From contig CAYHHH010000009.1 of assembly GCA_964356125.1 (NCBI GenBank), positions 1 through 62,746 of the forward strand: DNA of 62,746 bases. Reading direction: 5' to 3'. Under the pieces are notes generated by a model. That model ran no database searches, had not been told where the DNA came from, and saw only the letters and a program-made list of their open reading frames with translations. This DNA comes from an uncultured Bifidobacteriaceae bacterium (lineage in GTDB: Bacteria; Acidobacteriota; Vicinamibacteria; Vicinamibacterales; JAMQPK01). Below are positions 11,849 to 42,506 of the stretch, piece by piece. Numbering within the stretch: the first letter of the stretch is position 1; each line of letters starts with the position of its first letter. The position numbers and the translations under genes are program-made.

Positions 11849-12565
11849 CTACGAACGACCGCGCAAGTTCCTGGCCGCAGCGGGTGCTGGTCCGTGCCAG
11901 CGCACAACCTGCGGCTTGCGCCACAGGTACGGATTCGGGATCACCAGAATGTGCACGAGCCGCGTGAACGGGAACACCGCGACGATGAGGAACGCGTTGA
12001 TGATGTGAAACTTGATCGGCCAGGGAAGAGCCGCGACGAGCGCCACGTCCGGATGCAGCCGCACGATCGACCAGAGGTACGGCGCGCCAAGGGCCGCATA
12101 CCACGACGATCCCCACGGATACAGCACCGCGATCAACACTCCGCCGCCGACTTGCGCCATCAGGAGTGCGAGTATGAGCCAGTCGCCGGCACTGGTAACC
12201 GTCCGTAACCTGCCGTTCGTGGCCCGCCGGCCGATCAACGCCGCAAGCCCGATCGCGGTCAGCATGCCGAACACCAGTGCCGTAACCTCCAGCACGTACA
12301 GTCGCAGCGGTCTGCTGTTCCAGGCGAGCACGGTGCGCGGAATCAGCAGCCCGACGACGTGGCCCGCGAGCACGACGAGGATTCCGTAATGAAACGGAAC
12401 CATCCCCCAGAAATGCTGCCGGTTCTCCAGGAACTGGGACGAGAGGCTCGAATAGGTGAACGAGCGCTCGATATAGCGCTGGATGGTCAGAATGAAAAAT
12501 ACGGCGAACGCGACGTACGGGAGCGTGCCGAACAAAAGAATATCGATGGCTGCTGCGCTAAGCAT
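11849..12565 (-). CDS. narI: Respiratory nitrate reductase gamma subunit (dihaem b)
   Basis: ORF trimmed to ATG 12565. Five TM segments, with His ligand contexts HFWGMVPFHYG and KFHIINAFLIVAVFPFTRLVH typical of NarI. Confidence 0.9.
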   Translation of the reverse strand: MLSAAAIDILLFGTLPYVAFAVFFILTIQRYIERSFTYSSLSSQFLENRQHFWGMVPFHYGILVVLAGHVVGLLIPRTVLAWNSRPLRLYVLEVTALVFGMLTAIGLAALIGRRATNGRLRTVTSAGDWLILALLMAQVGGGVLIAVLYPWGSSWYAALGAPYLWSIVRLHPDVALVAALPWPIKFHIINAFLIVAVFPFTRLVHILVIPNPYLWRKPQVVRWHGPAPAAARNLRGRS

Positions 12566-13064
12566 GAACGCTCTCCTGGATCGCACGCATCAGATGACGG
12601 AACGGGGTTCCGGCGGCATCGAGTGCTGCGGCCATCTTCGCGAGCGCTGCGTGCAGCTCCTCCCGTGCCAGCGGCATGGCGTCCGACGGCAGACCCGCCG
12701 CAAGCTGCAGCACGTAGCTCAGATGGTCGGGCAGCTCGGTCGCCTCCTCGATGCCGTGCCTCTCGAGCGCGTGCCTCATTCGCACCAGAAATGCTCCTCG
12801 CTCGTACTGCTCGCCGAAGAGGTGCCATCCAAGCTCCAGCGGGCACACAGGGTTGAGGTCGAACGCGCGGGTGTAGAGCTCCTGCAGCTGCCCGAGCGAC
12901 AGGTTTTCGACTGCTGTCGCAAATGCATCGATGGCCTGTGCGGCCTGCGGCGACACGCTGGCCAGCTCATCGGCCGCGGCGAGCAGCGTCGTCCGGTACT
13001 CGCGGCTCGGATAGGTGACCAAATCGGCCAGCAGCGTGCAGGCGTGATGCCGGGCTGTCGTCAA
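12558..13064 (-). CDS. narJ: Nitrate reductase molybdenum cofactor assembly chaperone
   Basis: TTG start at 13064 overlaps the narH TGA (TTGA) and follows GAGGAGGGG. Sequence ...LYTRAFDLNPVCPLELGWHLFGEQYERGAFLV...LPDHLSYVLQL matches the NarJ/TorD fold signature. Position between narH and narI. Confidence 0.85.
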   Translation of the reverse strand: MTTARHHACTLLADLVTYPSREYRTTLLAAADELASVSPQAAQAIDAFATAVENLSLGQLQELYTRAFDLNPVCPLELGWHLFGEQYERGAFLVRMRHALERHGIEEATELPDHLSYVLQLAAGLPSDAMPLAREELHAALAKMAAALDAAGTPFRHLMRAIQESVHA

Positions 13065-14551
13065 ATTCCCCTCCTCGGTCCCTGCAGAAACCCGAAGCCC
13101 GCCTGCTGTTTGTGTTCGAGCGGATCCTCCAGCATCTGAATCGCTTCTTCCCGGTGCGCGGGCGGCACCACGAAACGATCGTCGAACGTGCACAGCGACG
13201 TCAGGCGATAAATGGCTTCCGCCTCGACAGGCGAGCAGTCGGCTTCCTTCAGCATCCGCTCCGCGGCATCCATCGGCACGTCGCCGACGGTGACCGCGCG
13301 GCGGTACCACCGCACCGCTTTCTGTTTGCGCAGCGCGTAGCGCACGCCGTCTTCGTGGCCGGCGCCGAACAGGCTCGCGAGAAACGCCATCGGCACACGC
13401 GCCTGCTCGATGTCGTGAAACAGATCGTCTGAGACCCCGTCGACCCCGTGTACGGTGCTCTGCGCCATCACCGGTGACATCGGCGGCACGTAAAACAGCA
13501 TCGGCAGCGTGCGGTACTCGATGTGGGGCGGCAGCGCCACTTTCCAGACCTTCACGAACTGATAGACAGGCGACCTCTGCGCTGACAGGATGACGTCATC
13601 GTGGATGCCGTTGACGCGCGCAGCGGCGATCACCTCGGGATCGTTCGGGTCGAGCACGAGCGACCGGTGTCCCTCTACCAGCTCGGCGTCCGGCATTTTG
13701 GCCACCTCTTCGATGCGCGCCGCGTCGTACAGCAGCACACCGAGGTACCGGATTCGGCCGACACAGGAATGGAAGCACGCTGGCGCCTGCCCCGTTTCCA
13801 GGCGCGGGTAGCAGAGGATGCATTTCTCGGACTTGCCCGTCTGCCAGTTGTAGAACACTTTCTTGTACGGGCACGCCGCAATGCACGCGCGCCACGCGCG
13901 GCAGCGGTTCTGATCGACCAGCACGATGCCGTCTTCGCCGCGCTTGTACAGCGCGCCTGACGGACAGGCGGCGACGCACGACGGGTTCAGACAGTGGTTG
14001 CAGATGCGGGGGAAGTAGAACATCACGAGGCGCTCAACCGCGAACAACTGCTGGCGCTGCTCCTCGGTGAGGCCGTCGAGGTTCTTGTCGTTCTCCGCGT
14101 AAATCGGCGACCCCGCCAGGTCGTCGTCCCAATTCGGCCCCGATGTGATCTCGATCGGCTGCCCGGTCACCATCGAGATCGGCCGCGCGGTCGGCTGATC
14201 GTCGCCAGCCGGCGCGTTGAAGAGGTTCTGGTAATCGTAGGTCCACGGCTCGTAATAGTCCTCCATCGACGGAAGCCGCGGCGTATGGAAGATGTTGGCC
14301 ACGATCTGCGCCTTGCTGGTGGAGCGCATCTTCAGCTCTCCGTCTTCCACTTTCCACCCGCCGCGGTACTTGTCCTGGTCTTCCCACCGCTTTGGATAGC
14401 CGGTCCCCGGCTTGGTCTCCACGTTGTTCCACCACATGTATTCGGTGCCTTTGCGATCGGTCCAGATGTTCTTGCAGGCGACGCTGCAGGTATGGCACCC
14501 GATGCACTTGTCGAGATGAAACACCATTGAAATCTGCGATCGCACGTCCAT
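13061..14551 (-). CDS. narH: Respiratory nitrate reductase beta subunit (4 Fe-S clusters)
   Basis: MDVRSQISMVFHLDKCIGCHTCSVACKNIWT is nearly identical in pattern to the enterobacterial NarH N-terminus. The other Cys groups are CNHCLNPSCVAACP, CRAWRACIAACPY and CILCYPR...CFHSCVGRIRY. Confidence 0.95.
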   Translation of the reverse strand: MDVRSQISMVFHLDKCIGCHTCSVACKNIWTDRKGTEYMWWNNVETKPGTGYPKRWEDQDKYRGGWKVEDGELKMRSTSKAQIVANIFHTPRLPSMEDYYEPWTYDYQNLFNAPAGDDQPTARPISMVTGQPIEITSGPNWDDDLAGSPIYAENDKNLDGLTEEQRQQLFAVERLVMFYFPRICNHCLNPSCVAACPSGALYKRGEDGIVLVDQNRCRAWRACIAACPYKKVFYNWQTGKSEKCILCYPRLETGQAPACFHSCVGRIRYLGVLLYDAARIEEVAKMPDAELVEGHRSLVLDPNDPEVIAAARVNGIHDDVILSAQRSPVYQFVKVWKVALPPHIEYRTLPMLFYVPPMSPVMAQSTVHGVDGVSDDLFHDIEQARVPMAFLASLFGAGHEDGVRYALRKQKAVRWYRRAVTVGDVPMDAAERMLKEADCSPVEAEAIYRLTSLCTFDDRFVVPPAHREEAIQMLEDPLEHKQQAGFGFLQGPRRGI

Positions 14552-14562
14552 CCGGCCCCCCG

Positions 14563-17500
14563 TTACCATTTCAGCTCCGCCAGTTTCCGCACCAGAACGT
14601 GCGTGTCCCGGTTGCAGCCGACGGGGCCCCAGTAGTTGAAGTGATAGGTGAACTGGCCGTACCCGCCAATCATGAGGTTCGGCTTCAGCCTCGTTCGCGT
14701 GAGGCTGTTATGGCCGCCGGCCCGGCGGCCGCCGCGCAGCGGCGACTTCGGCACGCTGATCGTCCGCTCCGGCGCGTGATACTGAATGCCGATGCCACGC
14801 GGTATCCGCGCGCTGACGACGGCGCGGGTCACCACGACACCGTTATCGTTAAAAATCTCCACCCAGTCGTTGTCTTTCACGCCAATCTCGTCGGCGTCGC
14901 GCTCGTTCATCCAGAACGGCTCGACGCCTCTGGAGAGCGTCGACATCCGCGGGTTGTCGCTGTAGGTCGAGTGGATCTGCCACTTGCCGTGCGGTGTCAT
15001 GTAGTTCAACAGCAACCCCGGCGCATCGCGTTCGGTAAAATTCAGGTCCCACGATCGCGCAATCAACGGCTTGGGCTTGTAGGTGGGCAGATGCTCGCCG
15101 AACTCCAGATAGGCCGGATGGTCGAGATAGAAGTGCTGGCGTCCGGTCAGCGTGCGCCACGGCACGAGACACTCGAGGTTGTAGGTGAACGGAGAGTAGG
15201 CGCGGCCGTTTTCCGTGAGACCCGACCACATCGGGCTGTTCAGCAGACGCTGCGGTCGTGCCTGCAGCCCCTCGTAGCTCGCGCGCACACCGCGATTCTT
15301 CTCGGCCAGATGCGCGAGCGGCCTCCCAACCTTCTCTTCCATGTTCTTGTACGAGCGATAGGCCAGCTCGCCGTTGGTGACCGTCGCGAAACGGAGAATC
15401 ATCTCGCACGCCTCCTCGTCTCTTTCGATCGAGGGGTAGACGGCGCCGTTCCACGTCACGGTCGGATGGTTCCGCAGCGTTTCGTCGTACAAATCGTCGA
15501 CGGCATAACTGGTGCCGTGCGCGCCAAGGCCGTTGGCGCGGACCAGCGGCCCGAACGAAATGAATTGCCGGTGCACGTTCTTGTAGTCACGCGTGACCAC
15601 CCGAAGACCCGGCATCGTCTTCCCGGGTATCGCCGGCACCTCGCCGGTCCGCCAGTCCGCGATCGACGGTTGAGCGATCTCGGCGGCAGAATCGTGGGCG
15701 AGCGGCGCGGCGACGATGTCACGGACAGGGTCTGGCAGGTGCGTCGCGGCCAACGTCGAAAACCGCTCGGCTATCGCGCGGAAGATCTGCCAGTCGCTCT
15801 TCGACTCCCAGCACGGAGGTACGGCGGCCGACAGCGGATGGATGAAGCTGTGCATGTCGGTCGAGTTGAGATCCGCTTTCTCGTACCATGTGGCGGCGGG
15901 GAGGACGATGTCCGAGTACAGCGCAGAGGTGTCCATCCTGAAGTTCAGATCGACAACCAGGTCCATCTTCCCTTCCGGCGCATGCTCGTGCCACACGACC
16001 TCATGAGCCGTATCGCGGGCCAGGGGCTCGGCGACGGAGTTGTTGTGCGTCCCGAGGTAGTGCTTCAGGAAGAACTCGTGTCCCTTCGCGCTCGCCATGA
16101 GCGCGTTCCCCCGCCAGATGAACCACACGCGCGGCCAGTTCTCAGGCGCATCAGGATCGTCGATGGAGAACTTCAGCCGCCCGGCCTTGAGCTCACCGAC
16201 GGTGTAATCAACGATCGCTGCGGGCGTATCGGCGCCGGCCTGAACGGCCGCATCGGCCACGGCGAGCGGGCTGCGATCGAACTGCGGAAAGAATGGAAGC
16301 CATCCCGAGCGCACGGCCTGCGCCTGGACGGCCATGGTGTGCCCGCGGCGAATGCCCTCGCGCCCGTTCGCGGCGGGCATCGTGTTGTAGTCGGTGTAGG
16401 CGCCTTCGTATCGCCACTGGTCGGTGTGCACGTAGTGAAAGCTCGGCGAGTTCTGGAGCCGCGGCGCGGGATACCAGTCGCGCGCGAAGGCGATGGCACC
16501 CCACGGCTCGGCCGGGGCCAGCTTTTCCTGGCCGACATAGTGGCCCAGTCCGCCGCCGTTGACACCGACGCAGCCGGAGAACATCAGCGCGTGAATGGCG
16601 GCGCGATACATCAGGTTGCTGTGGTACCAGTGGTTCACGCCGGCGCCGATGATGATCAGGCACTTCCCGCCCGTCCGCTCGGCCGTCGAGCCCCATTCCC
16701 GCGCAAAACGCAACAACGTGTCGCTGCCGATGCCGGTGTACTTCTCCGCCCACGCGGGCGTGTAGGGCGCGTCGTCTGTGTAATCGCTGGGATACTCACC
16801 GCCAAGCCCGCGAGCCACGCCGTACTGCGCCATCAACAGGTCGTACGCGGTGGTCACCAGCACCGTCGTGCCATCCGCCATCTGGAGACGGCGAGCAGGC
16901 ACGGAGCGGGTTATCACGTCGCTCTGCGCAAAGTCGTCGAGCGTCACCGGAATCGCTTCGTCGTGACGTTCGAGGAAGCTCAGTACGGGGTCGATCGCCG
17001 CACCGGTGACGCCATCCTTCAACTCGAGATTCCATTTGCCTTTTTCCGCGCCCCACCGGAATCCCGAGCTGCCCATCGGCATCAACGGCTGTTCGGTCGT
17101 GGCGTCCCACATCAGGAATTTCCACTCGCCGTGCTCGGCGTCGCGGTACTTGGCGAGCCGGCCGGCGCGGAGCAGTTGGCCCGGCCGGTAGGCCGCGCCG
17201 TCCTGACACAGTTCGACCAGAAATGGTGCGTCGGTGTACCGCTTGCAGTAGTCGAGGAAGTACGGCACGCGCCGCTCGTGATGAAATTCCTTGAGCAGCA
17301 CATGATTGACGGCCATCCACCAGGCGCCGTCCTGGCCGGCGTTGACCGCCACCCACTCGTCGGCGAACTTGGCGACCTGGCTGAAATCGGGTGTGAACAC
17401 CCACATCTTCGAGCCGTTGTGGCGCGCCTCCGCCGCAAAATGGCAATCGGGCGTACGCGTCATGCCGAGGTTGGAGCCGGCCACCGCCAGCAGCTTCGCG

Positions 17501-18213
17501 TTGTACCAGTCGGCCGACTCGTGCACGTCGGTCTGCTCACCCCAGGTCTCGGGCGATGCCGGCGGCAGGTCGCAGTACCAGTCGTAAAACGACATCGAGA
17601 CGCCGCCGATCAGTTGAAGGTAGCGCGCGCCGGCGGCGTAGCTGATCATCGACATCGCCGGAATCGGCGAGAAGCCCGCGATTCGATCGGGACCCCATTT
17701 CTTGATCGTGTAGATGTTGGCTGCCGCGATCAGATCGAGCGCCGTGTCCCAGTCAGCGCGCCGGAATCCGCCCTTGCCGCGCGCCTGCTGCCAGCTCCGT
17801 CGTGCGTCGGGGTTCTCCACGAGCGACGCCCACGCCTGCACCGGGTCGCCCGTCGCCGCCACGGCATCGTTCCACAGATCCAGCAGCGCCCCGCGGATGT
17901 ACGGGTATTTCACGCGGAGCGGACTGTAGAGATACCAGGAAAAGGAAATTCCGCGCTGGCAACCGCGCGGCTCGTAAGGAGGCAGGCCCGCTTCGAGCGA
18001 GGGATAATCGAGCCCCTGCATCTCCCAGGTGACGATGCCGTTCTTGACGTAGATCTGCCAGCTGCAGCTGCCGGTGCAGTTCACACCGTGCGTACTGCGG
18101 ACGATTTTGTCGTGCTGCCAGCGGTTACGATAAAACTCTTCCCAACTGCGCGAGGCGGGATCCCGTTCGTCACGGATCCACGCAAGCACTTTCCCGTTGC
18201 CATTGTGTGTCAT
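14563..18213 (-). CDS. narG: Respiratory nitrate reductase alpha subunit (cytoplasm-facing; no Tat motif)
   Basis: ATG 18213 (ATGA overlap with the narC stop). FS0 motif [11 protein letters not shown]. Length 1216 aa. Collinear NarG-like sequence throughout. Confidence 0.95.
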
Positions 18214-19031
18214 GAGTGACCCCGCCGACTCAGGCGGCCCTTCCACGTCCGATCGAACGCAATCAGGCCAAGGATCGCGCCGAGAAATCCGGACATCAGA
18301 AACGCCGGAGACATCCGCCGCTGGCGATGCGAGTCCGTTGTGTTCGCATGTTCGAGAAACGCGACCAGCGCGCGCAGCTCAGCCGGCGCAAGCGGCTGCT
18401 CCCGGAAAATTTTCCGCATGACCGGCGTCGGCGGCGCCTTGAGCCAGGCCGTCGTGCCCGCCGGGCCTTTCATCTGTGCGAACACAAACGTCAAATCGGG
18501 ACCGAGCGTGCCGCCGCCGAGCAGCATGCCCGGGCCGGCCCGATGACACGCGTTGCACGCCACGCCGCCGCCCGACAGCCTCGACCGCCCTGTGAACAAC
18601 GCCTCACCGGCCGCAACGTCCTCCGGCGTGAACGGCGCGTCGTCAGCTTTGGATGGCGAACCTGCGTCGCCGCCCGATTGCCGATCGATGTAGAGAATCA
18701 GCTCGTCGAGCAGCTGCGGCGTGAGCCCTTCGGGCGTCGGCATCAATGCGTCTTCATACTTGTGGAGTATCTCGACGGCAATGGGATCGCCGGCATTCAC
18801 CATGGCTTCGGGATTGGCGATGAACCGGCGCAGCCAGTCGCGAGTGCGCAGCCGCGTCACCCCCTTCAGGTCGGGTCCGTTGACCTCCCCTTCTCCGATG
18901 GTGTGACAGGCCATGCAGTTCTCTTCGAAGTAACTGGCAACGTCCTGTGAGGCTGCGGACGCGGGAATCACGCAACAGACGATGGCGATCAGAGCGGATT
19001 GCCGCCTCGCGGATCGACCCGATTTCGTCAT
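18210..19031 (-). CDS. narC: Membrane-anchored periplasmic dihaem cytochrome c, first gene of the nar operon (Thermus NarC-like)
   Basis: Signal peptide. Two CxxCH motifs (CMACH, CNACH). C-terminal TM segment [19 protein letters not shown]. Translationally coupled to narG. Confidence 0.8.
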
Positions 19032-19063: not shown

Positions 19064-19083
19064 GCTATGACGAGCGTCATAGC
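19064..19083. promoter_or_regulatory. Palindromic operator candidate GCTATGACG-AG-CGTCATAGC (core TATGAC-N4-GTCATA) upstream of narC
   Basis: Read directly from the sequence. The centre lies 42.5 nt upstream of the narC ATG (19031). No Shine-Dalgarno sequence is visible before that ATG. Confidence 0.7.
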
Positions 19084-19097: not shown

Positions 19098-19274
19098 ACC
19101 AGCTACCGGCTACGAGCCAAGCCCTACTCGGTCGCGCGAAATTCAGCCGCGAGTGTTTCTACAACCGCCGTCGGCGTCGGGCCATCGTGCACGACGACGC
19201 GGTAGCGGAGCGTCAGCGGCGTGCCGGTCTTGATTGTGTACGGCCCGACCGCAGCGATGTTCGGGTTCAGCATC
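19098..19274. repeat. Copy A of a roughly 170-bp duplicated segment (3' end of the DUF6807 gene plus about 25 bp downstream); copy B lies at 57031..57190
   Basis: Hand alignment gives about 85 percent nucleotide identity. The encoded C-terminus AVVETLAAEFRATE-stop is identical in both copies. Confidence 0.8.
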
Positions 19275-20134
19275 CACAGTCCTCGCGAGCCGTGCCAGGT
19301 GGTCGGAGGGTTGGACGGATGGTCGAGCACCGCGGCTCCGACAGTCTTCCCGTTCGTGAGGGTGATGACGTAGCCGTACCACGGCGCTCCAGGCCAATTC
19401 GTTTCCGGCGCTGAGTAGTGCGCATCGGGAAACGCCACGGTGCCGCCGGGCCACGTGTAATGCGAGTCCCCGTCCTTGCGCGCCTGAAAGTTGAATCCCG
19501 AGAAGCCCTGCTTGTTCAGCTGGTAATCGACGAGCACCGCCAGCCTGAACACGACATCGATGACATACACGCCGTCCCGCTCGGCGACCGTCGTCGTCGT
19601 CGTTTCCTCGGCGAACTTGCGTTTGTTGACGCCCCAGTCGTTCTGAACTTCGATGACGGCCCTGGCCGCATCGGCTGACTTCAGCGTGACGTCGCGGGTC
19701 TCGATCGTGCGGCCATCGCGCGGCGCGTACACGCCCCATCCCCAGAAGTCGGCCTTGGTGACATTCCAGCCGAACAACGGACTGGTCGGCCCCTTGCGCG
19801 TAATCGGCTGGCGGAACTCGGAGTCGTGCCACGCGATGTACATGCCGCGGTGGTGCGGATGATCGTCGGGCGCGAGCGCGCTGACCCGTTCTCCCGACGG
19901 CGTGTTGATCGGATGAAAGCACGCCGCGTTCGGTCCCGTCAGCGGTACGCCCGCCGGTTTGCTCGTCACGTACTCCAGCACGACACGGCCGTCAGGCGTT
20001 TTGAGCTGCACGCCGTTGGCGACAGGCGTCAGGGTGTAGGCGCCCGACGTGCGCGCCTGACCCCAAGCCGGCCGTTCGCACAACGCAAACGCGAATGCAC
20101 AGAGTGCGAGCGTGATCGCAAGTGTCGTTTTCAT
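19124..20134 (-). CDS. PmoA-family / DUF6807 domain protein (secreted)
   Basis: Signal peptide MKTTLAITLALCAFAFA. Motifs FHPINTPSGE...DHPHHRGMYIAWH and ...HPSNP..TWH... are typical of the DUF6807 (PmoA-like) family. ATGA overlap with the upstream propeller gene. Confidence 0.75.
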   Translation of the reverse strand: MKTTLAITLALCAFAFALCERPAWGQARTSGAYTLTPVANGVQLKTPDGRVVLEYVTSKPAGVPLTGPNAACFHPINTPSGERVSALAPDDHPHHRGMYIAWHDSEFRQPITRKGPTSPLFGWNVTKADFWGWGVYAPRDGRTIETRDVTLKSADAARAVIEVQNDWGVNKRKFAEETTTTTVAERDGVYVIDVVFRLAVLVDYQLNKQGFSGFNFQARKDGDSHYTWPGGTVAFPDAHYSAPETNWPGAPWYGYVITLTNGKTVGAAVLDHPSNPPTTWHGSRGLWMLNPNIAAVGPYTIKTGTPLTLRYRVVVHDGPTPTAVVETLAAEFRATE

Positions 20135-22077: not shown

Positions 22078-22093
22078 GTCAGGACCTCATTCT

Positions 22094-22117
22094 GAATATC
22101 GATAATCGATTATATTC
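22094..22117. promoter_or_regulatory. AT-rich island GAATATCGATAATCGATTATATTC with a minus-strand TATAAT; possible internal promoter for paralog 1
   Basis: The only AT-rich stretch between 22078 and 22170. On the minus strand TATAAT lies about 30 nt before ATG 22077. Contains two ATCGAT palindromes. No convincing -35 element. Confidence 0.25.
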
Positions 22118-22170
22118 CGCCGCCACACCCGCCGCTCCGGACTTTTCGGTCGATCCGATCGTCACGCCAG

Positions 22171-22356
22171 CTACTGGATGCCGATCCTGCTCACCTTCCG
22201 CAGGAACGCGCCCCGGTAGACGATCAGCGCTGCGGCGGCCGCAAGTGACACAACCGCGAGCGCCCACTGCGCCATCTGGACCGCCCAGATCGCGACGCCA
22301 ACGGCCAGCACGACACACACGCTGATAAACACCACGTGAAACCATTTGAGCGACAT
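22171..22356 (-). CDS. Small two-TM membrane protein, function unknown
   Basis: 61 aa, MSLKWFHVVFISVCVVLAVGVAIWAV...LAVVSLAAAAALIVY. Lies directly downstream of the oxidase subunit IV-like gene. Coding status rests on hydrophobic periodicity and spacing only. Confidence 0.4.
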   Translation of the reverse strand: MSLKWFHVVFISVCVVLAVGVAIWAVQMAQWALAVVSLAAAAALIVYRGAFLRKVSRIGIQ

Positions 22357-26756: not shown

Positions 26757-26795
26757 CTGGTTTCTCCTTTTCAGCCTCTGACGAAACGCCCCGAT

Positions 26796-28544: not shown

Positions 28545-28554
28545 GGTGCTGGTC

Positions 28555-30498: not shown

Positions 30499-30522
30499 AT
30501 CCTTCTGGCCAATAGTGTTTTT

Positions 30523-31434: not shown

Positions 31435-31458
31435 CGCTGTGGCCCTCTCAACTCATCC

Positions 31459-34764: not shown

Positions 34765-34803
34765 CAAATCCTCCCTTATAGAGCCATTCAGTTAATCGGC
34801 CGT

Positions 34804-36816
34804 CTACGATTTCGCGGGAAGGGCGTAGGCAATGTACGCTCCGCGGGTGCAGAAGACGACATACTGGCGACCGTCAACTTCGTAGACGGCCGGCGCGCCT
34901 TCGGCCCCGTCTGGAAGCGCCGCGCTCCAGAGCACCTTGCCCGTGTCTTTGTCGAACGCGCGAGCTTTTCTCTCCACAGTGGCGGAGAACGCCAGCCCTC
35001 CGGCGGTGATCGCCAGACGCGCCTTGGGCCCGTGGACCTTGACGATGCCGAAGTTGTTTCCCGGGGGGTTCACGCCCACCGCTTCTCCATAGGGGATCTG
35101 CCACTTGATCGTCCCGTTGTTGAGGTCGTAGGCGGTGATGTTGGAGTAGGGCGGCGTCACGTGCAGCGGTGACGCCGAGTAGTTCGTGTACATCCGCGGC
35201 GGCACATCAGCGCCGTCGGGATACGGGGGCGGTTCGATGGCAGCAGCCGGAAGGGGCGCGGGCGGCTGCGACGTACCGGTGGGAGCTATCGGGGCCCGCC
35301 GACGGTCGGGGAGGATCTGCACACCGTCGACAGGGTTGCCATTCAGAACCGGAGGACTCCACAAGTTGCGGTTGACGTGCTGCGCAGCCTCGGCGGCCGT
35401 GCGGAAGTACCGCTGGATGGACGGTTGATCGTACCCGATCACATACATGGTGCCGGTGGCGAGATCGGACGAGGTGGTGAAATGAATCGCCCCACCAGAG
35501 TGACCGGGCATCATAACCGTCCAGTAATCGAGGCTAATGGGCGTGTAGAGGCCGTCGTTCCGGGCCTTCGACACCATCTCCGTCCATGTGGCTCGATCCG
35601 CATCGTTGAGAATGATCTTGTCGATGTCCTTCACCGTGTACGACTGCCGCACAAACGAGGGCGGCTTGGTTGGAAACGGCTGCGTTGGCGACAATTTCTC
35701 GCCGGGCACATCAGAGGGCGGAACCGGCCGTTCGGGAATGGGCCAGATCGGCTGGCCGGTCACGCGGTTGAGCACGTAGAGGAATCCGTTCTTGCTCGCT
35801 TGCGCGACGATGTCCACGGGCTTGCCGTTCTGGCGAACGGTTAGCAGTTGTGGTGCGGCAACAGGCTCATACTCCCACACGTCGTGATGGATCATCTGGT
35901 AGTGCCAGATCCGCTTCCCCGTGCGGGCGTCGAGCGCGAGCAGCGTGTTGGAGAACAGCGTATCGCCGTGGCGATCGCCGCCCCAGAACTCGTACTTGGG
36001 CGTGCCGACCGGGATGTACGCAATACCGCGCGCCTGGTCGATGCTCAGTTCCCCCCAGGCCGCCGCACCGCCCGAGTACGTCCAGGCATCCTTCGGCCAG
36101 GTTTCGTAGCCGTACTCGCCGGGATGCGGGATCGTGTGAAAGACCCAGGCCAAACTGCCGGTGACCACGTCGAAGGCACGAATATCCGCGGGGGGCGATC
36201 CGTAGGCCTCGCCGGTGGCCGATCCGAGGATGAGCAGATTCTCGAATACTTGGCCCGGGCTCTTCGAATTGTCCGGCTTGGTCCCGCGCGTCATGCCGGT
36301 CCGAAGATCCACGCGCCCGTTGCTCCCGAAGGTGGGCACAAGCTTGCCGGTCTTTGCGTCGATCGCCTCGAGATTGCCGTCTACACGAATAAAGAGTCGC
36401 TGGTCGGTGCGAGCTGCGTTTTCCCAATAGTTCAAGCCGCGGTAGACCCTGAGCCCGTTGCTCCCGGGGAACGGATGCACCCAGATCTCCTTGCCGTTTG
36501 TGGCATCGACCGCGACAAGGCTCCCGTTCTTCGCGAGGGCGTACATGACCCGACCCGCCACGAGCGGCTGGAACGTGTAGCCAACCTGGTCCTGGGTGTC
36601 ATAGGTCCAGGCGACCTGCAGGTTGGCCACGTTGGAACGATCAATCTGGGTCAGCGCCGAGTAGTTCGACGAATCCGGGGCGCCGTTCGCGTACTGCCAC
36701 GTCGTGTACGGCTCTGGACCCGCGTGGCCGCTCTGTGCGGCGAGCGCCAACCCGCCGCCCACCACGACCGTAAGCACCAGCCCTTGAATGGATCTGGAGG
36801 TCCTGAGCATTCCCAT
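34804..36816 (-). CDS. PQQ-dependent dehydrogenase (quinoprotein, 8-bladed propeller)
   Basis: Start ATG 36816 or 36810. Signature W.YANG..DSSNYSALTQIDRSNVANLQVAWTY. Repeated propeller W motifs. No CxxCH. Confidence 0.85.
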   Translation of the reverse strand: MGMLRTSRSIQGLVLTVVVGGGLALAAQSGHAGPEPYTTWQYANGAPDSSNYSALTQIDRSNVANLQVAWTYDTQDQVGYTFQPLVAGRVMYALAKNGSLVAVDATNGKEIWVHPFPGSNGLRVYRGLNYWENAARTDQRLFIRVDGNLEAIDAKTGKLVPTFGSNGRVDLRTGMTRGTKPDNSKSPGQVFENLLILGSATGEAYGSPPADIRAFDVVTGSLAWVFHTIPHPGEYGYETWPKDAWTYSGGAAAWGELSIDQARGIAYIPVGTPKYEFWGGDRHGDTLFSNTLLALDARTGKRIWHYQMIHHDVWEYEPVAAPQLLTVRQNGKPVDIVAQASKNGFLYVLNRVTGQPIWPIPERPVPPSDVPGEKLSPTQPFPTKPPSFVRQSYTVKDIDKIILNDADRATWTEMVSKARNDGLYTPISLDYWTVMMPGHSGGAIHFTTSSDLATGTMYVIGYDQPSIQRYFRTAAEAAQHVNRNLWSPPVLNGNPVDGVQILPDRRRAPIAPTGTSQPPAPLPAAAIEPPPYPDGADVPPRMYTNYSASPLHVTPPYSNITAYDLNNGTIKWQIPYGEAVGVNPPGNNFGIVKVHGPKARLAITAGGLAFSATVERKARAFDKDTGKVLWSAALPDGAEGAPAVYEVDGRQYVVFCTRGAYIAYALPAKS

Positions 36817-36899: not shown

Positions 36900-36919
36900 C
36901 ATATGACCGCCGTCATATG
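36900..36919. promoter_or_regulatory. Palindromic operator candidate CATATGAC-CGCC-GTCATATG (core TATGAC-N4-GTCATA)
   Basis: Read directly from the sequence. Lies in the 134-nt gap between the NIPSNAP gene stop and the PQQ dehydrogenase start. Confidence 0.65.
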
Positions 36920-36950: not shown

Positions 36951-37775
36951 TTAGATCTGCGAGTACGCCGCGGGCCGCAAATACATGCTGCTGATGTTCG
37001 CGACGATTTCCGGATCGGTGAGGCCGGGCGTGGTGGAGAGCTTTCGCCACTCGGGATCGGCGCCAAACGCGCTCCACTGGGTGTCGCGCGCAGCCATGTT
37101 CTCGTACACCAGCATGTAGGTCAGATTCGGCATACTCGATCCGACGATCGTTTCGCCGAAGAAGACCGGCTGCATGCCGGCTTTCCGGAACAGCGCGATC
37201 TCGGCCGTGTTGAACATGTCGATCTTCTTCTTGCCGGCCTTCTCGCTGTGGCTTTCGTAGATACGGAGCTCGAAAATGCGGGCCCGCTTGCCATTTTCTC
37301 CTCCGCCAAAGGGCAGCTCCAGCTTCGGGATCCCCTCGAAGGCACGCATGAGGGAGCTGTTGAGCCGAACGAAGGCCGGCTCGGTTGCCGCAGCCTCCAG
37401 GTAAGGAGCCCCGGCTTTCTGGTATTCCGCGTCGGCCGCGAGCCGTGCCGGCAGAGACGCGAACGCGTCGAGACTCGGATGCACGAGCAGGACATACAAC
37501 GACGGGCTGTCGGCGCCAATCATCACGTTGAAAGCGCCTACCGGCCCGACCCCCGCGCGCTGAAGTGCCGGGATCGCCGCAAGACGCCAGTAATCGTCCA
37601 CAATCCGCGTGCGAAGCCCCCGCCGGAGATGGTACCGCCGCAATTCGTAGTACTCCGGCGACCGCGCGGGCTCACTCCCCCGCGAAGCGGTCTGCTCGGC
37701 GGCTGCCGCGGCGCCGCCCACCAGCAGTGTTCCTCCGGCCGCCAGCGTCGAGGTCACAAAATCGCGTCGATTCAT
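36951..37775 (-). CDS. Double NIPSNAP-domain protein with Tat-type signal
   Basis: ATG 37775: MNRRDFVTSTLAAGGTLLVGGAAAAA. Two NIPSNAP repeats (YYELRRYHL..., RIFELRIYES...MLVYENMAARD..W). Confidence 0.8.
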   Translation of the reverse strand: MNRRDFVTSTLAAGGTLLVGGAAAAAEQTASRGSEPARSPEYYELRRYHLRRGLRTRIVDDYWRLAAIPALQRAGVGPVGAFNVMIGADSPSLYVLLVHPSLDAFASLPARLAADAEYQKAGAPYLEAAATEPAFVRLNSSLMRAFEGIPKLELPFGGGENGKRARIFELRIYESHSEKAGKKKIDMFNTAEIALFRKAGMQPVFFGETIVGSSMPNLTYMLVYENMAARDTQWSAFGADPEWRKLSTTPGLTDPEIVANISSMYLRPAAYSQI

Positions 37776-37868
37776 TTCGCATCCCCCAGATTCAGGAAAA
37801 TGTAGGCGCCTTTGTTGTTGATGACGTGGGGCACGCACTCAACGCCGAGTCGGAAAGCGGGAACGGCG

Positions 37869-38714
37869 CTATGGCGCCATCGAGGCAGGCGCAGGCAGCG
37901 TCACCTTGCCTGTGGCCGCCCATTCGGCCCCCCGAGGAAAGAGCGTGGCAAACGCAGCGGTCTGTATCGTCGGGACATCGTGCCCCAGCACGGTGGTGAA
38001 GACGCGTCCTTTGCCGTAGTCCACCGTCCACATCACCGGCTGGTGCAGGCCGGGACCTGAAAGCGGCTGCGGCGCCTTCGCGTCGGTGCGCGAGGCCTGG
38101 TAGAGCGCATGATCGTCCCAGGCCGTGGCCAGCACGCGATACGAGCCCTCGGGCTGCCAGCGCAGGTTGGCATAGAGCTCGTCGTTCGCCTGCGGAAACG
38201 AGCTCTTCAGTCCCTTTGTGATGGGATGGTCCGGATCCTTGATGTCAACGACAAAGTCGTGGCGGGCTGAGTGGTGACCGTAGCCCTTGCTCGGTGCCCA
38301 CATGCCGGCGGCCAACTTCTCATACTCTGCCCAGCCATCGAAAGCCGCGACGGCAAAGTGGTAAATCACCAGGCCCTTGCCTGAGCGCACAAAATCCAGC
38401 AGAGCGAGATCGGCCCGATCCCCCCAACGCAGCTCGGGTCTGCCCCGTTCGTAGTAGTTCGAAATGACCAGGTCGTAGGGCGCCAGCGTCTCCGCGCTCG
38501 CACCGCGAAATTCTTCGGTCACACGAACGTCGAATCGACCGGTGTCCTCGAGCAGCTGGCGGAGGGCCGGCGTGGTGGCCCTCCAGTTATGCCCGTTCTG
38601 CCCGGTAATCATCAGAACGGAAATCTTCGCCGGCTCCGTGGCTGGCTGCTGGCCAACGACGAAGCCTCCAGCAGCCACAAGCGACAGGACGACGAGGGGC
38701 AGCCTGCGTTTCAC
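37869..38714 (-). CDS. ThuA-like protein with Sec signal
   Basis: GTG 38714 lies 6 nt after GGAGG. VKRRLPLVVLSLVAAGGFVVG. ThuA motifs: VLMITGQNGHNW, YDLVISNY, GKGLVIYHFA, HPITKGL, TVLGHD. Confidence 0.8.
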   Translation of the reverse strand: MKRRLPLVVLSLVAAGGFVVGQQPATEPAKISVLMITGQNGHNWRATTPALRQLLEDTGRFDVRVTEEFRGASAETLAPYDLVISNYYERGRPELRWGDRADLALLDFVRSGKGLVIYHFAVAAFDGWAEYEKLAAGMWAPSKGYGHHSARHDFVVDIKDPDHPITKGLKSSFPQANDELYANLRWQPEGSYRVLATAWDDHALYQASRTDAKAPQPLSGPGLHQPVMWTVDYGKGRVFTTVLGHDVPTIQTAAFATLFPRGAEWAATGKVTLPAPASMAP

Positions 38715-38736
38715 CGGGAACCTCCGTTCATTTCTT

Positions 38737-40533
38737 TCAATCGCCGCTCGAACGTTCTGACGTTCCCTGGCTCGCAGCATGGAGTCCTGCGAGGCGGCCG
38801 AACAGGATCGATTTAGCCAGGCCATGCTGGGCCACCCCGCTCGCGCATTCGCCGCCGGCATAGAGACCAGGGATGACCTGGCCGTTCATGTCCACGACCT
38901 GCGCGTTGGTGTTGATCCGGATGCCGGCATACACGTCGTGCAGCACCGGCGTCGCCCATGCGGCATAAAACGGCGGCGTCTGGATCTTGTCGGTGGGCGT
39001 CGGCTTGCCGAAGTCGGCATCGACTCCCGCGTCGACGAAGGAGTTGTACCGTTCCACCGTCATGCGCAGAGCGCTGCCCTGCATCGGCCACGTCTGATAC
39101 GGACACCTGGTGAGCTGACTCGCGAGCTCCTCGAGCGTGTCGGCGCTGAAGAAGAAGCCGCCTGCGCGATCGACGTACGGCGGTTCGGTATTCCACCGCT
39201 CGCGCTTCGCCGCAGCCGCATCGAAGATGGCCCAGATCGGGCCGCCACCGTTCAGCTTCTTCGGATTGCCGCTCCACGCCAGCGCCGCGTCGATGTGCTG
39301 GCGCCAGCCGAGCGAGCCCATAGGCTTGCCCCGGAGCGTCTCTTCAGAGAAGCGGCGGCCGTTCTCCTTCACCATGATGGCGTCCTGCCAGTCGATGATC
39401 CCGAGACCCATGGCGACCTGGCGGAAGAACACGGGGCAATCCGGCGGAATGGGGGGGCTGCCGTTCTGCCTGGTTCCGAGCCTGCCTCCCGCCCTGTCAA
39501 CCTGCCGGTCACCGAGGTTGACCTGGTTGGACGCCGTCCAGAGCGAGGCCCCGACGGACATGGCCGCCAGCTCGCCGTCGGCGTCCTTCGTCGTCCAGGC
39601 GCTGGCCCAGACCCCGTACTCCTCGGTCAACCGCGGATCGTAGATGCGGCGGAAGTTGACATTGGCCGAAGGCCCACCAGTCGCGATGATGACGCCCTTG
39701 CGCGCGCGGATGTTGACGGTGCTCCCTGTCGGCTTGTTGAACTTGTCGACTTCCTGAGCGGTGACGCCAATCACGCGTCCGGAGTTCGGGCGCTCGCGGT
39801 GAATCCGCAACATCTTGTGGAGCACCAGGAATCTGACACCCTTGGCCCGGGCATGTTTCTCCAACGGCCTGATCAGCCCCGTGCCTCGAGTGCCGTCGAC
39901 GATGTGCTCCGCCCGGTTCGGCCAGACCTTGACGTTGGCATTCCGGGGGACCTTCGGATCGCCCGGCCCACGCGTGCCGCCAAGGCCCGTGAACTCAACC
40001 CCGTGGTCCAGGAGAAAATCCATGGTCGCAACGGCGTTGTCGGCAAACGCGCGAATGAGATCCCGGTCGTTGTGCTTCGCGAGCGGGTTGCCGCCTGGGC
40101 CGTAGACGTCCGGATTGATTCCGGCGGGTGTCTGGCCTTCTGAGTCCGTGTAATCCAGGAAGAACTGATCCGGCGAGTCCTTGACCCCGTACTGCTGCTG
40201 CACCCGGTTGCCGCACCCCAGCTGAACCTGGCCGCCGCTGAGAATGCCTCGCCCGCCGACGTCCCAGCACTTCTCGACCACGAGCACAGTGGCACCGCGA
40301 TCGACCGCCGCAACCGCCGCCGGCATGCCCGCCGCGCCGGAACCAATGACGACGACGTCATAGGTCTGGTCCCACTTGACGTTTGTCTGTACCTGGGCCG
40401 CTTCCACGGGCGTCTGGTTTGCGCCAAGACCTGCGAGCGCCGCGGCACCTCCGATGCCGGCTGCCGCTCCCTTGAGGAACCCTCTCCTGTCGACGTTTCC
40501 TCCCCTGCTCTCAGGTCGCTGCTTCTTCGCCAT
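38737..40533 (-). CDS. Tat-exported FAD-dependent oxidoreductase, paralog B
   Basis: ORF 38737..41100 trimmed to ATG 40533 (one-base TGATG overlap with the upstream stop). The Tat signal reads DRRGFLKGAAAGIGGAAALAG. The Rossmann motif is VVVIGSGAAGMPAAVAAVDRGATVLVVEK. Confidence 0.85.
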   Translation of the reverse strand: MAKKQRPESRGGNVDRRGFLKGAAAGIGGAAALAGLGANQTPVEAAQVQTNVKWDQTYDVVVIGSGAAGMPAAVAAVDRGATVLVVEKCWDVGGRGILSGGQVQLGCGNRVQQQYGVKDSPDQFFLDYTDSEGQTPAGINPDVYGPGGNPLAKHNDRDLIRAFADNAVATMDFLLDHGVEFTGLGGTRGPGDPKVPRNANVKVWPNRAEHIVDGTRGTGLIRPLEKHARAKGVRFLVLHKMLRIHRERPNSGRVIGVTAQEVDKFNKPTGSTVNIRARKGVIIATGGPSANVNFRRIYDPRLTEEYGVWASAWTTKDADGELAAMSVGASLWTASNQVNLGDRQVDRAGGRLGTRQNGSPPIPPDCPVFFRQVAMGLGIIDWQDAIMVKENGRRFSEETLRGKPMGSLGWRQHIDAALAWSGNPKKLNGGGPIWAIFDAAAAKRERWNTEPPYVDRAGGFFFSADTLEELASQLTRCPYQTWPMQGSALRMTVERYNSFVDAGVDADFGKPTPTDKIQTPPFYAAWATPVLHDVYAGIRINTNAQVVDMNGQVIPGLYAGGECASGVAQHGLAKSILFGRLAGLHAASQGTSERSSGD

Positions 40534-42506
40534 CAGTCGACAGCTCCTTTCTTGCCGAAGAAGATCATCGTGCCGAAGCGCCCGTTGTTGACGATGTCTG
40601 CGACACCATCGGCGTTCATATCGACGACCAGCGGCTGCCGTCCTACACCGGAATTGTTGTGAATGCGATGTGGAACGAAGTCGACGTCGCCTCCGGGCCG
40701 GCGAACCAGCTTGAACCAGTAGAAGACGTTCTCCGCGTCCTCGTCGGCGGGCCAGCCGTACGAGTAGTGGAAGTTGCCGAGGTTGTGATCTCTGTGCTTG
40801 CCTGTGACGATGTCCTTCAGGCCGTCGCCATCGACGTCGCCGAGCGCGAGCCCGTGCATTTCGGTGAACACCACGCCATGGCTCCTGGCCGGATCGCGAT
40901 CCATGATCATGTGGCGGACAAAGGAGATCGCGCCCGCGCGGTCGCGTTTCTGCTCGAACCAGGCGAGCCCGTACGCATGTGCTTCGAGGCTCGCGATCAC
41001 ATCGTTGAGCCCGTCGCCGTTGACGTCGTACACCTGAATCTGCGCGCCACCTCCGGCGCCCTGGCCGGCACGGCCGAATTCTTCTGGGTGAAATTTCCAC
41101 GGCACTTTGGTTGGCGACTCAGGTTGCTCCCACCAGCCCCAGCCCCGGAGCACGTCGATCCGGCCGTCGCCGTTCACGTCGCCAATACCGATGCCGTGCG
41201 GACCCCAGCTCGCCTGTTCGGTCAACTGATGCACGATCCAGGGCTTCGTCGGATCGGACGGATCGGGCTCGGCGTAGTTCACTGCGGAGCCATTGCCTCC
41301 GATCACGAACTCAGGTTTCCCGTCCCGATCGATGTCGGCCATCTCGACGTTCTCGGACGGCCCCGCCAGGTTCAGAATCTCGAAACGCGCCCAGCGGCGC
41401 AGCTCGTTGTGAGGATTCACATACAGGTAAACGGGACTTCCGCCCGTAAACGCCTTGACCACCACGTCGGGCCAGCCGTCACCGGTGAAGTCGGCGGCCT
41501 CGCACGAAAGCGTGGAGCCGTAGTTGGTGACGTCGAGTGGATAGGTGTGGTCGATCGTTCGCCCCTTCCTGAAATCCGGTCCCATCCAGACCATGAGGCC
41601 GGCCACAATGTCCAGGTTGCCATCGCGGTCGACATCGGCCACGCACGAGCCGTCTCCGTGGAAATAGGGGGTGACCACCTGCACACGAAACCGGCTCGCA
41701 AACGTGTCGACTGTCGGAACGATCTCCGCGTAGTTGCGGATGGCGACGTCTCTGAATCGCACTTCCGCGCCAGGACTGCCGGCCACGCGCAACGCCAGCG
41801 GGCCGAAGGCGCCGAACTGCGGGCGGAGCGCAATGCGATCCCCCTGGCCGAAACCGGGACCCATCGCCGGAGCGGGGTACCCCGTGCTGACCGTCGTGCC
41901 GTTCAATACGACGTTCAGCGCCTGGCTGTCGGCGTTCACCGGCGTGAAGAGCCGCACTTCGACCTGATTCCATTCGCCGGGTCGAATGCTCGCGGGAGGA
42001 CGCGGCACCGACATCGGGTGACCGACAGGTGCGGGCGGAGGCACGCCGCCCTGCCGGCCACCACCGGCACCCGCACCGCCGCCGCGTGCAGCGGCGGGCG
42101 CGAGTTTGCGCCGTTCAAGTTCTTGTCCCATGGAACCGACGCTCAGCTCGTACGCGTTCAGATCGTCGTCAGTCAGGGAGATGTAGGTGCCCGTGGCACG
42201 CTCGCCCGCGCTCTCCATTCCCAGCAGAATGCCGGTCTGGCATTCGCCGGTGCAGCGAAATGAGAACTTCACGCCCAAATCCTGGTAGCCGCGATCGCTC
42301 AGGAGCCAGCCACCACCACCGGACGACACGGTGCCGATGATCTCGCTGCCTTCCACGCGCCAGGCAGCCGAGCCCTTCGCGTGCCACACGGCTGGATCTG
42401 TTCCATCGAGCCCGCCCACAAGACGTGCGGGCTGCTGGCCGAACGCCACGAGCGTGAATGCTGCCGCGAAGGCGGCGACCGCGGCCACACCTACTGTACG
42501 AGCCAT
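40533..42506 (-). CDS. Secreted DUF1080 + FG-GAP/VCBS beta-propeller protein, paralog 3 (lacks the heptanucleotide repeat)
   Basis: Same two-domain architecture as paralogs 1 and 2 but more divergent. The loop WWEQPESPTKVPWKFHP is 9 aa shorter than in paralogs 1 and 2. Confidence 0.8.
   Translation of the reverse strand: MARTVGVAAVAAFAAAFTLVAFGQQPARLVGGLDGTDPAVWHAKGSAAWRVEGSEIIGTVSSGGGGWLLSDRGYQDLGVKFSFRCTGECQTGILLGMESAGERATGTYISLTDDDLNAYELSVGSMGQELERRKLAPAAARGGGAGAGGGRQGGVPPPAPVGHPMSVPRPPASIRPGEWNQVEVRLFTPVNADSQALNVVLNGTTVSTGYPAPAMGPGFGQGDRIALRPQFGAFGPLALRVAGSPGAEVRFRDVAIRNYAEIVPTVDTFASRFRVQVVTPYFHGDGSCVADVDRDGNLDIVAGLMVWMGPDFRKGRTIDHTYPLDVTNYGSTLSCEAADFTGDGWPDVVVKAFTGGSPVYLYVNPHNELRRWARFEILNLAGPSENVEMADIDRDGKPEFVIGGNGSAVNYAEPDPSDPTKPWIVHQLTEQASWGPHGIGIGDVNGDGRIDVLRGWGWWEQPESPTKVPWKFHPEEFGRAGQGAGGGAQIQVYDVNGDGLNDVIASLEAHAYGLAWFEQKRDRAGAISFVRHMIMDRDPARSHGVVFTEMHGLALGDVDGDGLKDIVTGKHRDHNLGNFHYSYGWPADEDAENVFYWFKLVRRPGGDVDFVPHRIHNNSGVGRQPLVVDMNADGVADIVNNGRFGTMIFFGKKGAVD

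Follow-up and report, generated by a model that had tools for sequence, protein, structure and literature searches.

Introduction

The closest described system to the one examined here is that of Thermus, comprising the DnrT regulator and the narCGHJI(KT) operon. DnrT of Thermus thermophilus is a Crp-family activator without an Fe-S cluster, and its site in the Pnrc promoter contains TTGAC-N4-GTCAT at approximately -43 (PMC7694296). In the Thermus narCGHJI operon, NarC is a periplasmic, dihaem, membrane-bound fourth subunit, and a proposal for Thermus is that, under repression of complex III, it bridges the flow of electrons to reductases in the periplasm (PMC7694296). Here, we describe a narCGHJI operon in contig CAYHHH010000009.1 of assembly GCA_964356125.1, a 62,746 nt stretch of DNA that is referred to below, at its full length, as the window. 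The operon stands at the end of a 30 kb array of genes (11849-42506) that includes genes for exported proteins of dehydrogenase type, and copies of a palindrome, here called the box, are found at several places in and around the array. Gemmatimonadota, the phylum in which we place the source genome, are abundant soil carriers of clade II nosZ, and to our knowledge little is understood of how they induce and feed the reduction of nitrous oxide (N2O).

Other described systems bear on the remaining genes of the array. Single-domain DUF1080 proteins include the 3-ketotrehalose hydrolase BT2157 and a proposed 3'-ketolactose hydrolase of Caulobacter, both of which are periplasmic and encoded beside a glycoside 3-dehydrogenase (PMC9007349). 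TonB-dependent import of pyrroloquinoline quinone (PQQ), by PqqU, is described in PMC12124388 for bacteria that do not make this cofactor.

A prediction made earlier for this DNA proposed that substrate oxidation in the periplasm is wired through cytochromes c to the reduction of nitrogen oxides (N-oxides). The part of it that stands is co-regulation, which a shared operator-like box makes plausible, but a conserved or dedicated electron route is unsupported, and a route from the dehydrogenases to the N-oxide reductases is hypothetical.

A palindromic box with the geometry of an activator site

The sequence TATGAC is one half of a perfect 16 bp palindrome, TATGAC-N4-GTCATA. Five perfect boxes are present in the window, starting at 2535, 19066, 36902, 42576 and 52332, and every one is intergenic.

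2535-2550, no strand assigned: box 1, in the divergent crp / scdA-nos promoter region, with TAGTCT 21 nt downstream towards scdA
19066-19081, no strand assigned: box 2, centred 42 nt upstream of the narC ATG, with TCTAGT at offset 21
36902-36917, no strand assigned: box 3, centred 93 nt upstream of the ATG of the PQQ dehydrogenase gene, with TAAAAG 21 nt downstream
42576-42591, no strand assigned: box 4, centred 77 nt upstream of the first gene of the array, with CATGCTGTGG after 21 nt
52332-52347, no strand assigned: box 5, at the head of an NXR-like operon, with TAAAAC at offset 21

Boxes 2, 3 and 4 are those that the original prediction had noted before narC, the PQQ dehydrogenase gene and the first gene of the array, and all three proved to be perfect copies. 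Three units, namely narCGHJI, the run from the PQQ gene to a DUF5916 gene (unit B) and the run from a DUF1080/FG-GAP gene to a NIPSNAP gene (unit A), are thus each headed by a perfect palindrome with a -10-like hexamer 21-22 nt after it.

With up to two mismatches allowed, the window contained six box matches (five of them perfect), against 0.56 expected. In the 4.8 Mb genome there are nine perfect boxes, compared with none for a reversed control pattern, and for each of the four outside the window a target gene was identified immediately downstream. These further targets are DGC-nnrS, DUF2249-hemerythrin, a TIGR04053 radical-SAM/SPASM gene and an unassigned gene on contig C34, and a box with one mismatch precedes a multihaem cytochrome gene. 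The flanks of 11 sites share no similarity, so the boxes are independent sites and do not belong to a mobile or repetitive element. The direct repeats that the array contains are paralogous coding sequence only.

Spacing was assessed for 27 perfect boxes from this genome and its relatives, each read in both directions (54 directions). The pattern TAnnnT followed at an offset of 21 nt in 12 cases and of 22 nt in four, and at all other offsets between 10 and 34 nt together in six. If TAnnnT represents the -10 element, the centre of the box would lie approximately 41 nt before the transcription start, as in class II promoters of Crp/Fnr activators. A role for the box as a genuine operator-like element with activator geometry is therefore one that its sequence context supports.

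The regulator and its likely targets

The candidate box-binding protein is encoded next to box 1.

1793-2518, minus strand: Crp/Fnr-family regulator (Pfam cNMP_binding and HTH_Crp_2), adjoining box 1

It has no Cys cluster of the FNR type, and the sequence of its recognition helix is ...TIETCIRIMSRW (E-T-C-I-R). For comparison, we used 40 relatives, 24 of them of the same genus. An orthologue of the regulator was found in 15/40, and all 15 have perfect boxes (38 in total), whereas the 25 relatives that lack it have seven boxes in total, spread over six genomes; as these are related genomes, they are non-independent samples for this co-occurrence. In at least seven genomes, a box lies immediately next to the gene for the regulator.

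In the relatives, the genes adjacent to a box include the radical-SAM gene (at least nine cases), crp/scdA (at least eight) and the gene for the dihaem-c/EB_dh subunit of the NXR-like enzyme (two), as well as the nos-linked cytochrome-cupredoxin gene, nnrS and the multihaem cytochrome gene. The pairing of the box with the NXR-like operon recurs in relatives G035 and G037. In G039, the only relative that has Nar, narC is preceded by a box with one mismatch and TAnnnT follows 22 nt after it. One box in G021 precedes a gene for a TonB-type barrel.

The TIGR04053 radical-SAM/SPASM protein of this genome (contig C38, 26562-27722) reached 455 bits (cut-off 395), and its relatives include the haem synthase AhbD and NirJ. 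An open reading frame (ORF) downstream of the C38 box, 'unk219', had been considered as the target, but it is in the wrong frame (G+C content at third codon positions, GC3, 0.51) and the true gene is that for the TIGR04053 protein. Across the relatives, the radical-SAM gene is the one most consistently headed by a box (loci L008, L009, L010, L011, L013, L112, L115 and L124), and it is probably a core anaerobic cofactor gene of the regulon.

Units A and B share the box with nos, nar, the NXR-like operon, nnrS and the hemerythrin gene, and on this ground their co-induction with nos, nar and the NXR-like operon is predicted and appears plausible.

Layout of the array

All 21 genes at 11849-42506 are on the minus strand, as the original prediction stated, with each ORF backed by a Pfam or NCBIfam match or by a GC3 of 0.75-0.87. 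The long plus-strand ORFs in the array have a GC3 of 0.60-0.68 and a high G+C content at first codon positions (GC1, 0.76-0.84), a signature that marks them as antisense shadows. The run of genes on one strand even continues past 42506 to 52297, through two unassigned genes and then the NXR-like operon.

Start codons were refined using signal peptides and Shine-Dalgarno sites before gaps were measured. Five gaps of at least 92 nt (92, 93, 93, 134 and 194 nt) were then found in the array, rather than the three above 90 nt reported earlier. An apparent gap of 306 nt contains a 61 aa ORF that encodes two membrane helices. Within units, junctions are 39 nt or less, except for one 93 nt gap in unit A, and the larger gaps hold boxes or a TATAAT hexamer. 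From upstream to downstream, the array consists of unit A, unit B, a small membrane pair, a DUF1080/FG-GAP plus DUF6807 pair and narCGHJI.

36951-42506, minus strand: unit A, headed by a box (Pfam matches, starts and signals)
40533-42506, minus strand: DUF1080/FG-GAP paralogue 3, unit A, first gene of the array
38737-40533, minus strand: FAD_binding_2 flavoprotein, unit A, exported by twin-arginine translocation (Tat)
37869-38714, minus strand: ThuA-like protein, unit A
36951-37775, minus strand: double NIPSNAP protein, unit A, Tat-exported
22905-36816, minus strand: unit B, headed by a box, gaps of 39 nt or less (Pfam, NCBIfam, refined starts)
34804-36816, minus strand: PQQ propeller dehydrogenase, unit B
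31459-34764, minus strand: CarboxypepD_reg + OMP_b-brl_4 TonB-type barrel, unit B
30523-31434, minus strand: p303, unit B
28555-30498, minus strand: DUF1080/FG-GAP paralogue 2, unit B
26796-28544, minus strand: FAD_binding_2 flavoprotein, unit B, Tat-exported
25974-26756 and 25175-25984, minus strand: two ThuA-like proteins, unit B
22905-25199, minus strand: DUF5916 protein, unit B
22384-22710, minus strand: caa3 subunit-IV-like (cox4-like) membrane protein (TIGR02229, 56.9 bits, above cut-off)
22171-22356, minus strand: unannotated 61 aa ORF with two hydrophobic helices (GC3 0.85), 28 nt downstream of the caa3-subunit-IV-like gene
20131-22077, minus strand: DUF1080/FG-GAP paralogue 1 (Pfam), Sec signal
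19124-20134, minus strand: DUF6807 protein (Pfam), Sec signal, gene overlapping that of DUF1080/FG-GAP paralogue 1 by 4 nt

The 16 genes other than nar encode two FAD_binding_2 flavoproteins, one PQQ propeller protein, three DUF1080/FG-GAP proteins and three ThuA-like proteins; the remainder are NIPSNAP, DUF6807, DUF5916, the TonB-type outer-membrane barrel, p303, the cox4-like protein and the small ORF. Most of the proteins of the array carry Tat or Sec signals, consistent with the original picture of exported FAD and PQQ enzymes, but to say that these dominate the array was an overstatement, given two flavoproteins and one PQQ enzyme in 16 genes.

The DUF1080/FG-GAP paralogue 1 and DUF6807 pair has no box and has its own perfect TATAAT hexamer approximately 45 nt before the ATG, which is likely to be a box-independent promoter. 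This hexamer sits in an unusually AT-rich stretch (22090-22135, minus strand). As one internal unit has a TATAAT promoter of its own and no box, the array is not one unit, and a single 30 kb operon is ruled out by the internal promoters, the gaps and the missing synteny. We consider it probable that the array comprises at least five transcription units on one strand, brought side by side in this genome specifically, and is neither an operon nor a conserved super-operon. Intrinsic terminators between units were not in excess over shuffled sequence and none was found in the gaps of the array, so read-through between units may occur. No Rfam match to a riboswitch or other RNA family was found in the gaps or elsewhere in the window.

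The promoter and leader of unit A (42520-42591: box, 21 nt, CATGCTGTGG, ...tgagcc) resembles the radical-SAM promoters at L008:6981, L009:13783, L010:3834 and L013:4017. The downstream element that it shares with them occurs in the radical-SAM promoters of five relatives, and the promoter of unit A is closer to those than this genome's own radical-SAM promoter is.

The catabolic units

The three exported DUF1080 (PF06439) proteins of the array all scored above the Pfam cut-off and have Sec signals. Genome-wide, there are 18 DUF1080 matches, seven DUF1080/FG-GAP fusions and approximately 20 PQQ dehydrogenase paralogues, and other genes for DUF1080/FG-GAP fusions also adjoin genes for PQQ dehydrogenases and TonB-type barrels. 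Based on these neighbourhoods and on their own content of DUF1080, ThuA, TonB-type barrel and DUF5916 genes, units A and B resemble loci for glycan or glycoside utilisation.

The two flavoproteins are 71% identical to one another. DUF1080/FG-GAP paralogues 1 and 2 share 76% identity, though paralogue 1 has no flavoprotein neighbour, while between paralogues 3 and 1 the figure is only 42%; among the ThuA-like proteins it is approximately 33%, or no similarity is detectable. With identities and neighbours that form such a mosaic, a clean tandem duplication of a three-gene cassette is not supported.

Among proteins of solved structure, the closest to the flavoproteins are the urocanate reductase UrdA (E 2.3e-30 with the sequence alone and 2.9e-50 with a profile), flavocytochrome c3 and ketosteroid dehydrogenases, with 3-ketosteroid dehydrogenases scoring about as well as UrdA-type relatives. 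The best NCBIfam match was the flavocytochrome c subfamily, below its cut-off. Each flavoprotein consists of a Tat signal and FAD_binding_2 only, with no haem or FMN input domain and no CxxCH. The Arg-containing NRLGGN-type substrate-binding motif of UrdA and Fcc3 is not conserved in the family at the level of the profile alignment. As their nearest characterised relatives are reductases and desaturases, the label 'dehydrogenase' is only putative for these proteins.

The 303 aa p303 has a weak match to CarboxypepD_reg only and no signal peptide, and it may be exported by hitch-hiking on the Tat signal of the flavoprotein. Two His residues and one Trp are nearly invariant in its homologues. p303 is a conserved partner of the flavoprotein across Acidobacteriota, Alphaproteobacteria and Gemmatimonadota (loci L025-L104).

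The PQQ enzymes probably use imported cofactor, as the whole genome yielded no pqqC and no PqqE match above cut-off. The PQQ gene of the array is directly followed by that for the TonB-type barrel (31459-36816), a candidate importer of substrate or cofactor.

The nar, nos and NXR-like operons

The nar genes form one operon, in which all junctions overlap by 4-29 nt.

11849-19031, minus strand: narCGHJI operon (Pfam)
18210-19031, minus strand: NarC, with two CxxCH
14563-18213, minus strand: NarG, with no Tat signal
13061-14569, minus strand: NarH
12558-13064, minus strand: NarJ
11849-12586, minus strand: NarI
44780-52347 including box 5, minus strand: operon for a Tat-exported NXR/EBDH-like molybdoenzyme with a dihaem-c/EB_dh subunit (Pfam)
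3362-4531, strand not given: dihaem cytochrome-cupredoxin protein, encoded by the gene before nosZ

narC is the first gene, and its stop codon overlaps the narG ATG by 4 nt, an order that is shared with relative G039. NarC matches only generic cytochrome c families in Pfam and NCBIfam. The N-terminus of NarG has no RR motif, and HGVNCTGSC is the cytoplasmic H-x3-C-x3-C motif. The operon is of the Thermus type with a cytoplasm-facing NarG, and as NarG has that motif and no Tat signal, nitrate reduction is cytoplasmic rather than periplasmic. On this point the original prediction of a periplasm-confined electron route fails for nitrate, and an ordinary quinol-to-cytochrome-c route is also present, as the genome has three cytochrome b genes and one NrfD-type gene.

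The window encodes four c-type cytochromes, the number given previously, and box-controlled dihaem cytochromes adjoin NosZ, Nar and the NXR-like enzyme. No CxxCH protein was found among the exported enzymes encoded at 19124-42506, bearing out the earlier observation that these have no dedicated acceptor subunits.

Parts of the dihaem cytochrome-cupredoxin gene (3362-4531) are 95-97% identical at the protein level to G018:C31 (L011), which is from the same genus, while ScdA, encoded beside it, is only 53-70% identical to its counterpart there. This difference suggests that DNA of the nos cluster has been exchanged recently within the genus. In the whole genome, the queries used gave no match to nirK above cut-off and only a weak partial match to cytochrome d1, and the genome looks like that of a reducer of nitrate and N2O without a recognised nitrite reductase.

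Conservation of the linkage

The original prediction had named comparative genomics of the linkage between the dehydrogenase modules and nos/nar as a check. NarG was found in 1/40 relatives and in none of the 24 genomes of the genus. NosZ was found in 2/24 at the threshold used, with a fragmented copy in a third genome, G019. The arrangement seen here is unique among the 41 genomes.

When a single flavoprotein sequence was used as the query in a contig scan, no matches were returned, and an alignment of six sequences was needed. Used to search one genome per species, this alignment retrieved 587 flavoprotein relatives, and the best 80 loci were inspected over 10 kb on either side. None of these 80 had a homologue of Nar, Nos, DUF1080/FG-GAP or ThuA beside the flavoprotein, while a p303 homologue was directly downstream in 38 of the 80. 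Seven relatives have flavoprotein homologues (46-52% identity), none of them near a box, nar or nos. The nearest flavoprotein genes were instead in a Terriglobia genome (62-73% identity, compared with at most 52% in the Gemmatimonadota relatives), which points to lateral acquisition.

The DUF1080/FG-GAP genes have a different distribution. An orthologue of paralogue 1 (73-75% identity) immediately follows the regulator gene in G008 and G021 and does so as a pseudogene in G016, while in G014 it lies close by; this and the G021 box before a TonB-type barrel gene are weaker observations in favour of a linkage. The family is present in 22/24 genomes of the genus, and as the regulator, Nar and Nos are all missing from most of these, it is not tied to N-oxide respiration. 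The linkage of the dehydrogenase modules with nos and nar is thus confined to this genome, an outcome that the original prediction had listed among those that would refute it. The array itself is an ordinary mosaic that is not to be treated as a conserved functional unit.

Explanations for the arrangement

The explanation that we favour is one of shared regulation. The box would be a class II activator site, centred near -41.5, for the neighbouring DnrT/DNR-like Crp/Fnr regulator, whose conserved targets in relatives would be scdA-nos, nnrS, narC, the NXR-like operon and the TIGR04053 radical-SAM gene. At low oxygen, or in the presence of nitric oxide (NO), N-oxide respiration would be switched on together with two glycan-utilisation-like units, whose role would be the uptake and periplasmic processing of glycosides or alcohols. 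The haem-less PQQ enzyme, and perhaps the flavoproteins too, would pass electrons to the common pool of c-type cytochromes and cupredoxin on which NosZ, the NXR-like enzyme and NarC also draw, making a dedicated wire unnecessary. Only in this lineage would the two catabolic units have been recruited to the regulon.

Several points weigh against this explanation. The genome has approximately nine Crp/Fnr paralogues, so the assignment of the neighbouring regulator as the binder is by adjacency and co-occurrence only, and class II geometry is judged solely from the spacing to a -10-like hexamer, which after box 4 (CATGCT) is weak. Genome-wide, boxes with one mismatch (two, against two for the control) or two mismatches (31 against 29) are not in excess; this all-or-none distribution, with nine perfect copies and no excess below them, is atypical for a transcription-factor regulon. 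No box was found before a PQQ, flavoprotein or ThuA unit in any of the 40 relatives, and the promoter of unit A could be a fragment captured by rearrangement. As for the enzymes, sequence does not fix the catalytic direction of the flavoproteins, whose nearest characterised relatives were noted above, and the whole-genome searches for pqqC and PqqE likewise count here.

That the exported dehydrogenases instead feed a dedicated periplasm-confined route, running through c-type cytochromes to NosZ, the NXR-like enzyme and, via NarC, Nar, with quinones bypassed and the gene order reflecting the wiring, appears unlikely. The catabolic units do have the same operator as nos, nar and the NXR-like operon, their PQQ enzyme and flavoproteins are exported and lack a haem partner of their own, dihaem cytochromes under box control lie beside all three reductase-type enzymes, and a bridging role of this kind is what has been proposed for NarC in Thermus. 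The orthologues of DUF1080/FG-GAP paralogue 1 downstream of the regulator gene in G008 and G021, with the G016 pseudogene and the nearby G014 copy, also fit. However, the active site of NarG is cytoplasmic, the three cytochrome b genes and the NrfD-type gene supply the normal quinol route, and neither Nar nor Nos was near the flavoprotein in any of the best 80 of 587 loci. Moreover, with DUF1080/FG-GAP in 22/24 genomes of the genus but NarG in 0/24 and NosZ in 2/24, the DUF1080/FG-GAP enzymes must work without N-oxide reductases in most relatives. We are equally doubtful of the fuller proposal that a DnrT-like regulator recruited periplasmic modules for oxidising glycosides or alcohols, and that lipoprotein dihaem cytochromes together with cupredoxin, or else NarC, hand the electrons straight on to NosZ, the NXR-like enzyme and Nar, so that both quinones and complex III are bypassed. 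If it were true, this periplasmic shortcut would allow a soil N2O consumer to burn plant-derived sugars on N-oxides.

The flavoproteins might also run in the other direction, as periplasmic terminal reductases that act as electron sinks, in which case the region would gather alternative systems for anaerobic electron acceptors under one regulator responsive to anoxia or NO, rather than encode a chain from donor to acceptor. Control by the box suits an anaerobic role, and both the best solved relatives (UrdA and the Shewanella flavocytochrome c3 fumarate reductases) and the best, albeit sub-threshold, NCBIfam match are of this type. But 3-ketosteroid dehydrogenases score about equally, a haem or FMN input domain is lacking, the NRLGGN-type Arg motif is absent from the aligned family, the neighbours (DUF1080, ThuA) are of glycoside type and the partner conserved across phyla is p303 rather than a cytochrome, all of which makes this very improbable. 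Alternatively, the run of genes on one strand and boxes 3 and 4 could be by-products of recent rearrangement or gene transfer, the boxes being captured promoter fragments with little or no regulatory effect and the proximity to nar being due to chance. The uniqueness of the arrangement among 41 genomes, the Terriglobia affinity of the flavoprotein genes and the mosaic paralogues, with no clean cassette duplication, are all compatible with this. DUF1080/FG-GAP paralogue 1 and the radical-SAM gene, which adjoin the regulator gene in relatives, have moved elsewhere here; together with the likeness of the box 4 promoter to the relatives' radical-SAM promoter, this makes promoter capture a live alternative. 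Nevertheless, boxes 3 and 4 are perfect palindromes (12/12), correctly placed and oriented between genes, and each has a -10-like hexamer at the fixed spacing of the regulon; decay would be expected of boxes that are not in use, and we regard an origin purely as by-products as unlikely.

The shared-regulation explanation thus yields, as its main gain, a concrete regulon, in which an operator and a likely DnrT-like regulator tie together nos, nar, the NXR-like enzyme, nnrS and the radical-SAM gene. Its extension to the catabolic units is a modest lead from a single genome. If co-induction holds, these units would indicate which carbon substrates drive N-oxide reduction in such bacteria.

Comparison with known systems

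In methylotrophic denitrifiers, a PQQ dehydrogenase of the periplasm that has no haem depends on a cupredoxin or a soluble cytochrome c to take up its electrons, and this acceptor could also feed periplasmic N-oxide reductases. The present locus differs in that no cognate cytochrome gene lies beside the PQQ gene, and no PQQ biosynthesis genes were found here.

Units A and B are similar to the 3-keto-glycoside pathways represented by LacABC of Caulobacter, BT2157 of Bacteroides and ThuAB of Agrobacterium and Sinorhizobium, in that an exported DUF1080 protein is encoded beside an exported flavoprotein and a ThuA-like protein, and in that the locus includes outer-membrane uptake. However, the flavoprotein is of the FAD_binding_2 (fumarate reductase/KstD) type and not GMC (LacA) or Gfo/Idh/MocA (ThuB), and DUF1080 occurs as a fusion with an FG-GAP propeller. 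At 19124-42506, no match to the GMC or Gfo families, no cytochrome c subunit and no small Tat subunit was found.

Class II promoters of FNR, DNR and NnrR (TTGAT-N4-ATCAA at -41.5) share with the boxes a 5-4-5 palindrome, the spacing to the -10 element, a regulator gene beside its own site and targets in denitrification and NO stress (nos, nnrS, scdA). The half-site here is ATGAC, not TTGAT, and the recognition helix has E-T-C-I-R where that of FNR has E-T-x-S-R.

Relative to Thermus, the window has no dnrS, drpAB, nrc or narK/T beside nar, the phylum differs, and the box is a perfect palindrome with ATGAC as its left half-site and T/A flanks. The regulon also extends to the PQQ, flavoprotein and DUF1080 units. 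The likeness of the regulator and NarC to their Thermus counterparts is one of layout and description: narC opens the operon and codes for a dihaem, membrane-bound periplasmic cytochrome c, NarG is oriented towards the cytoplasm and the regulator is a Crp-family protein without an Fe-S cluster. A DUF2249-type gene in the regulon is common to both, and between the DnrT site and the box one half-site is identical and the other matches at 4/5 bases.

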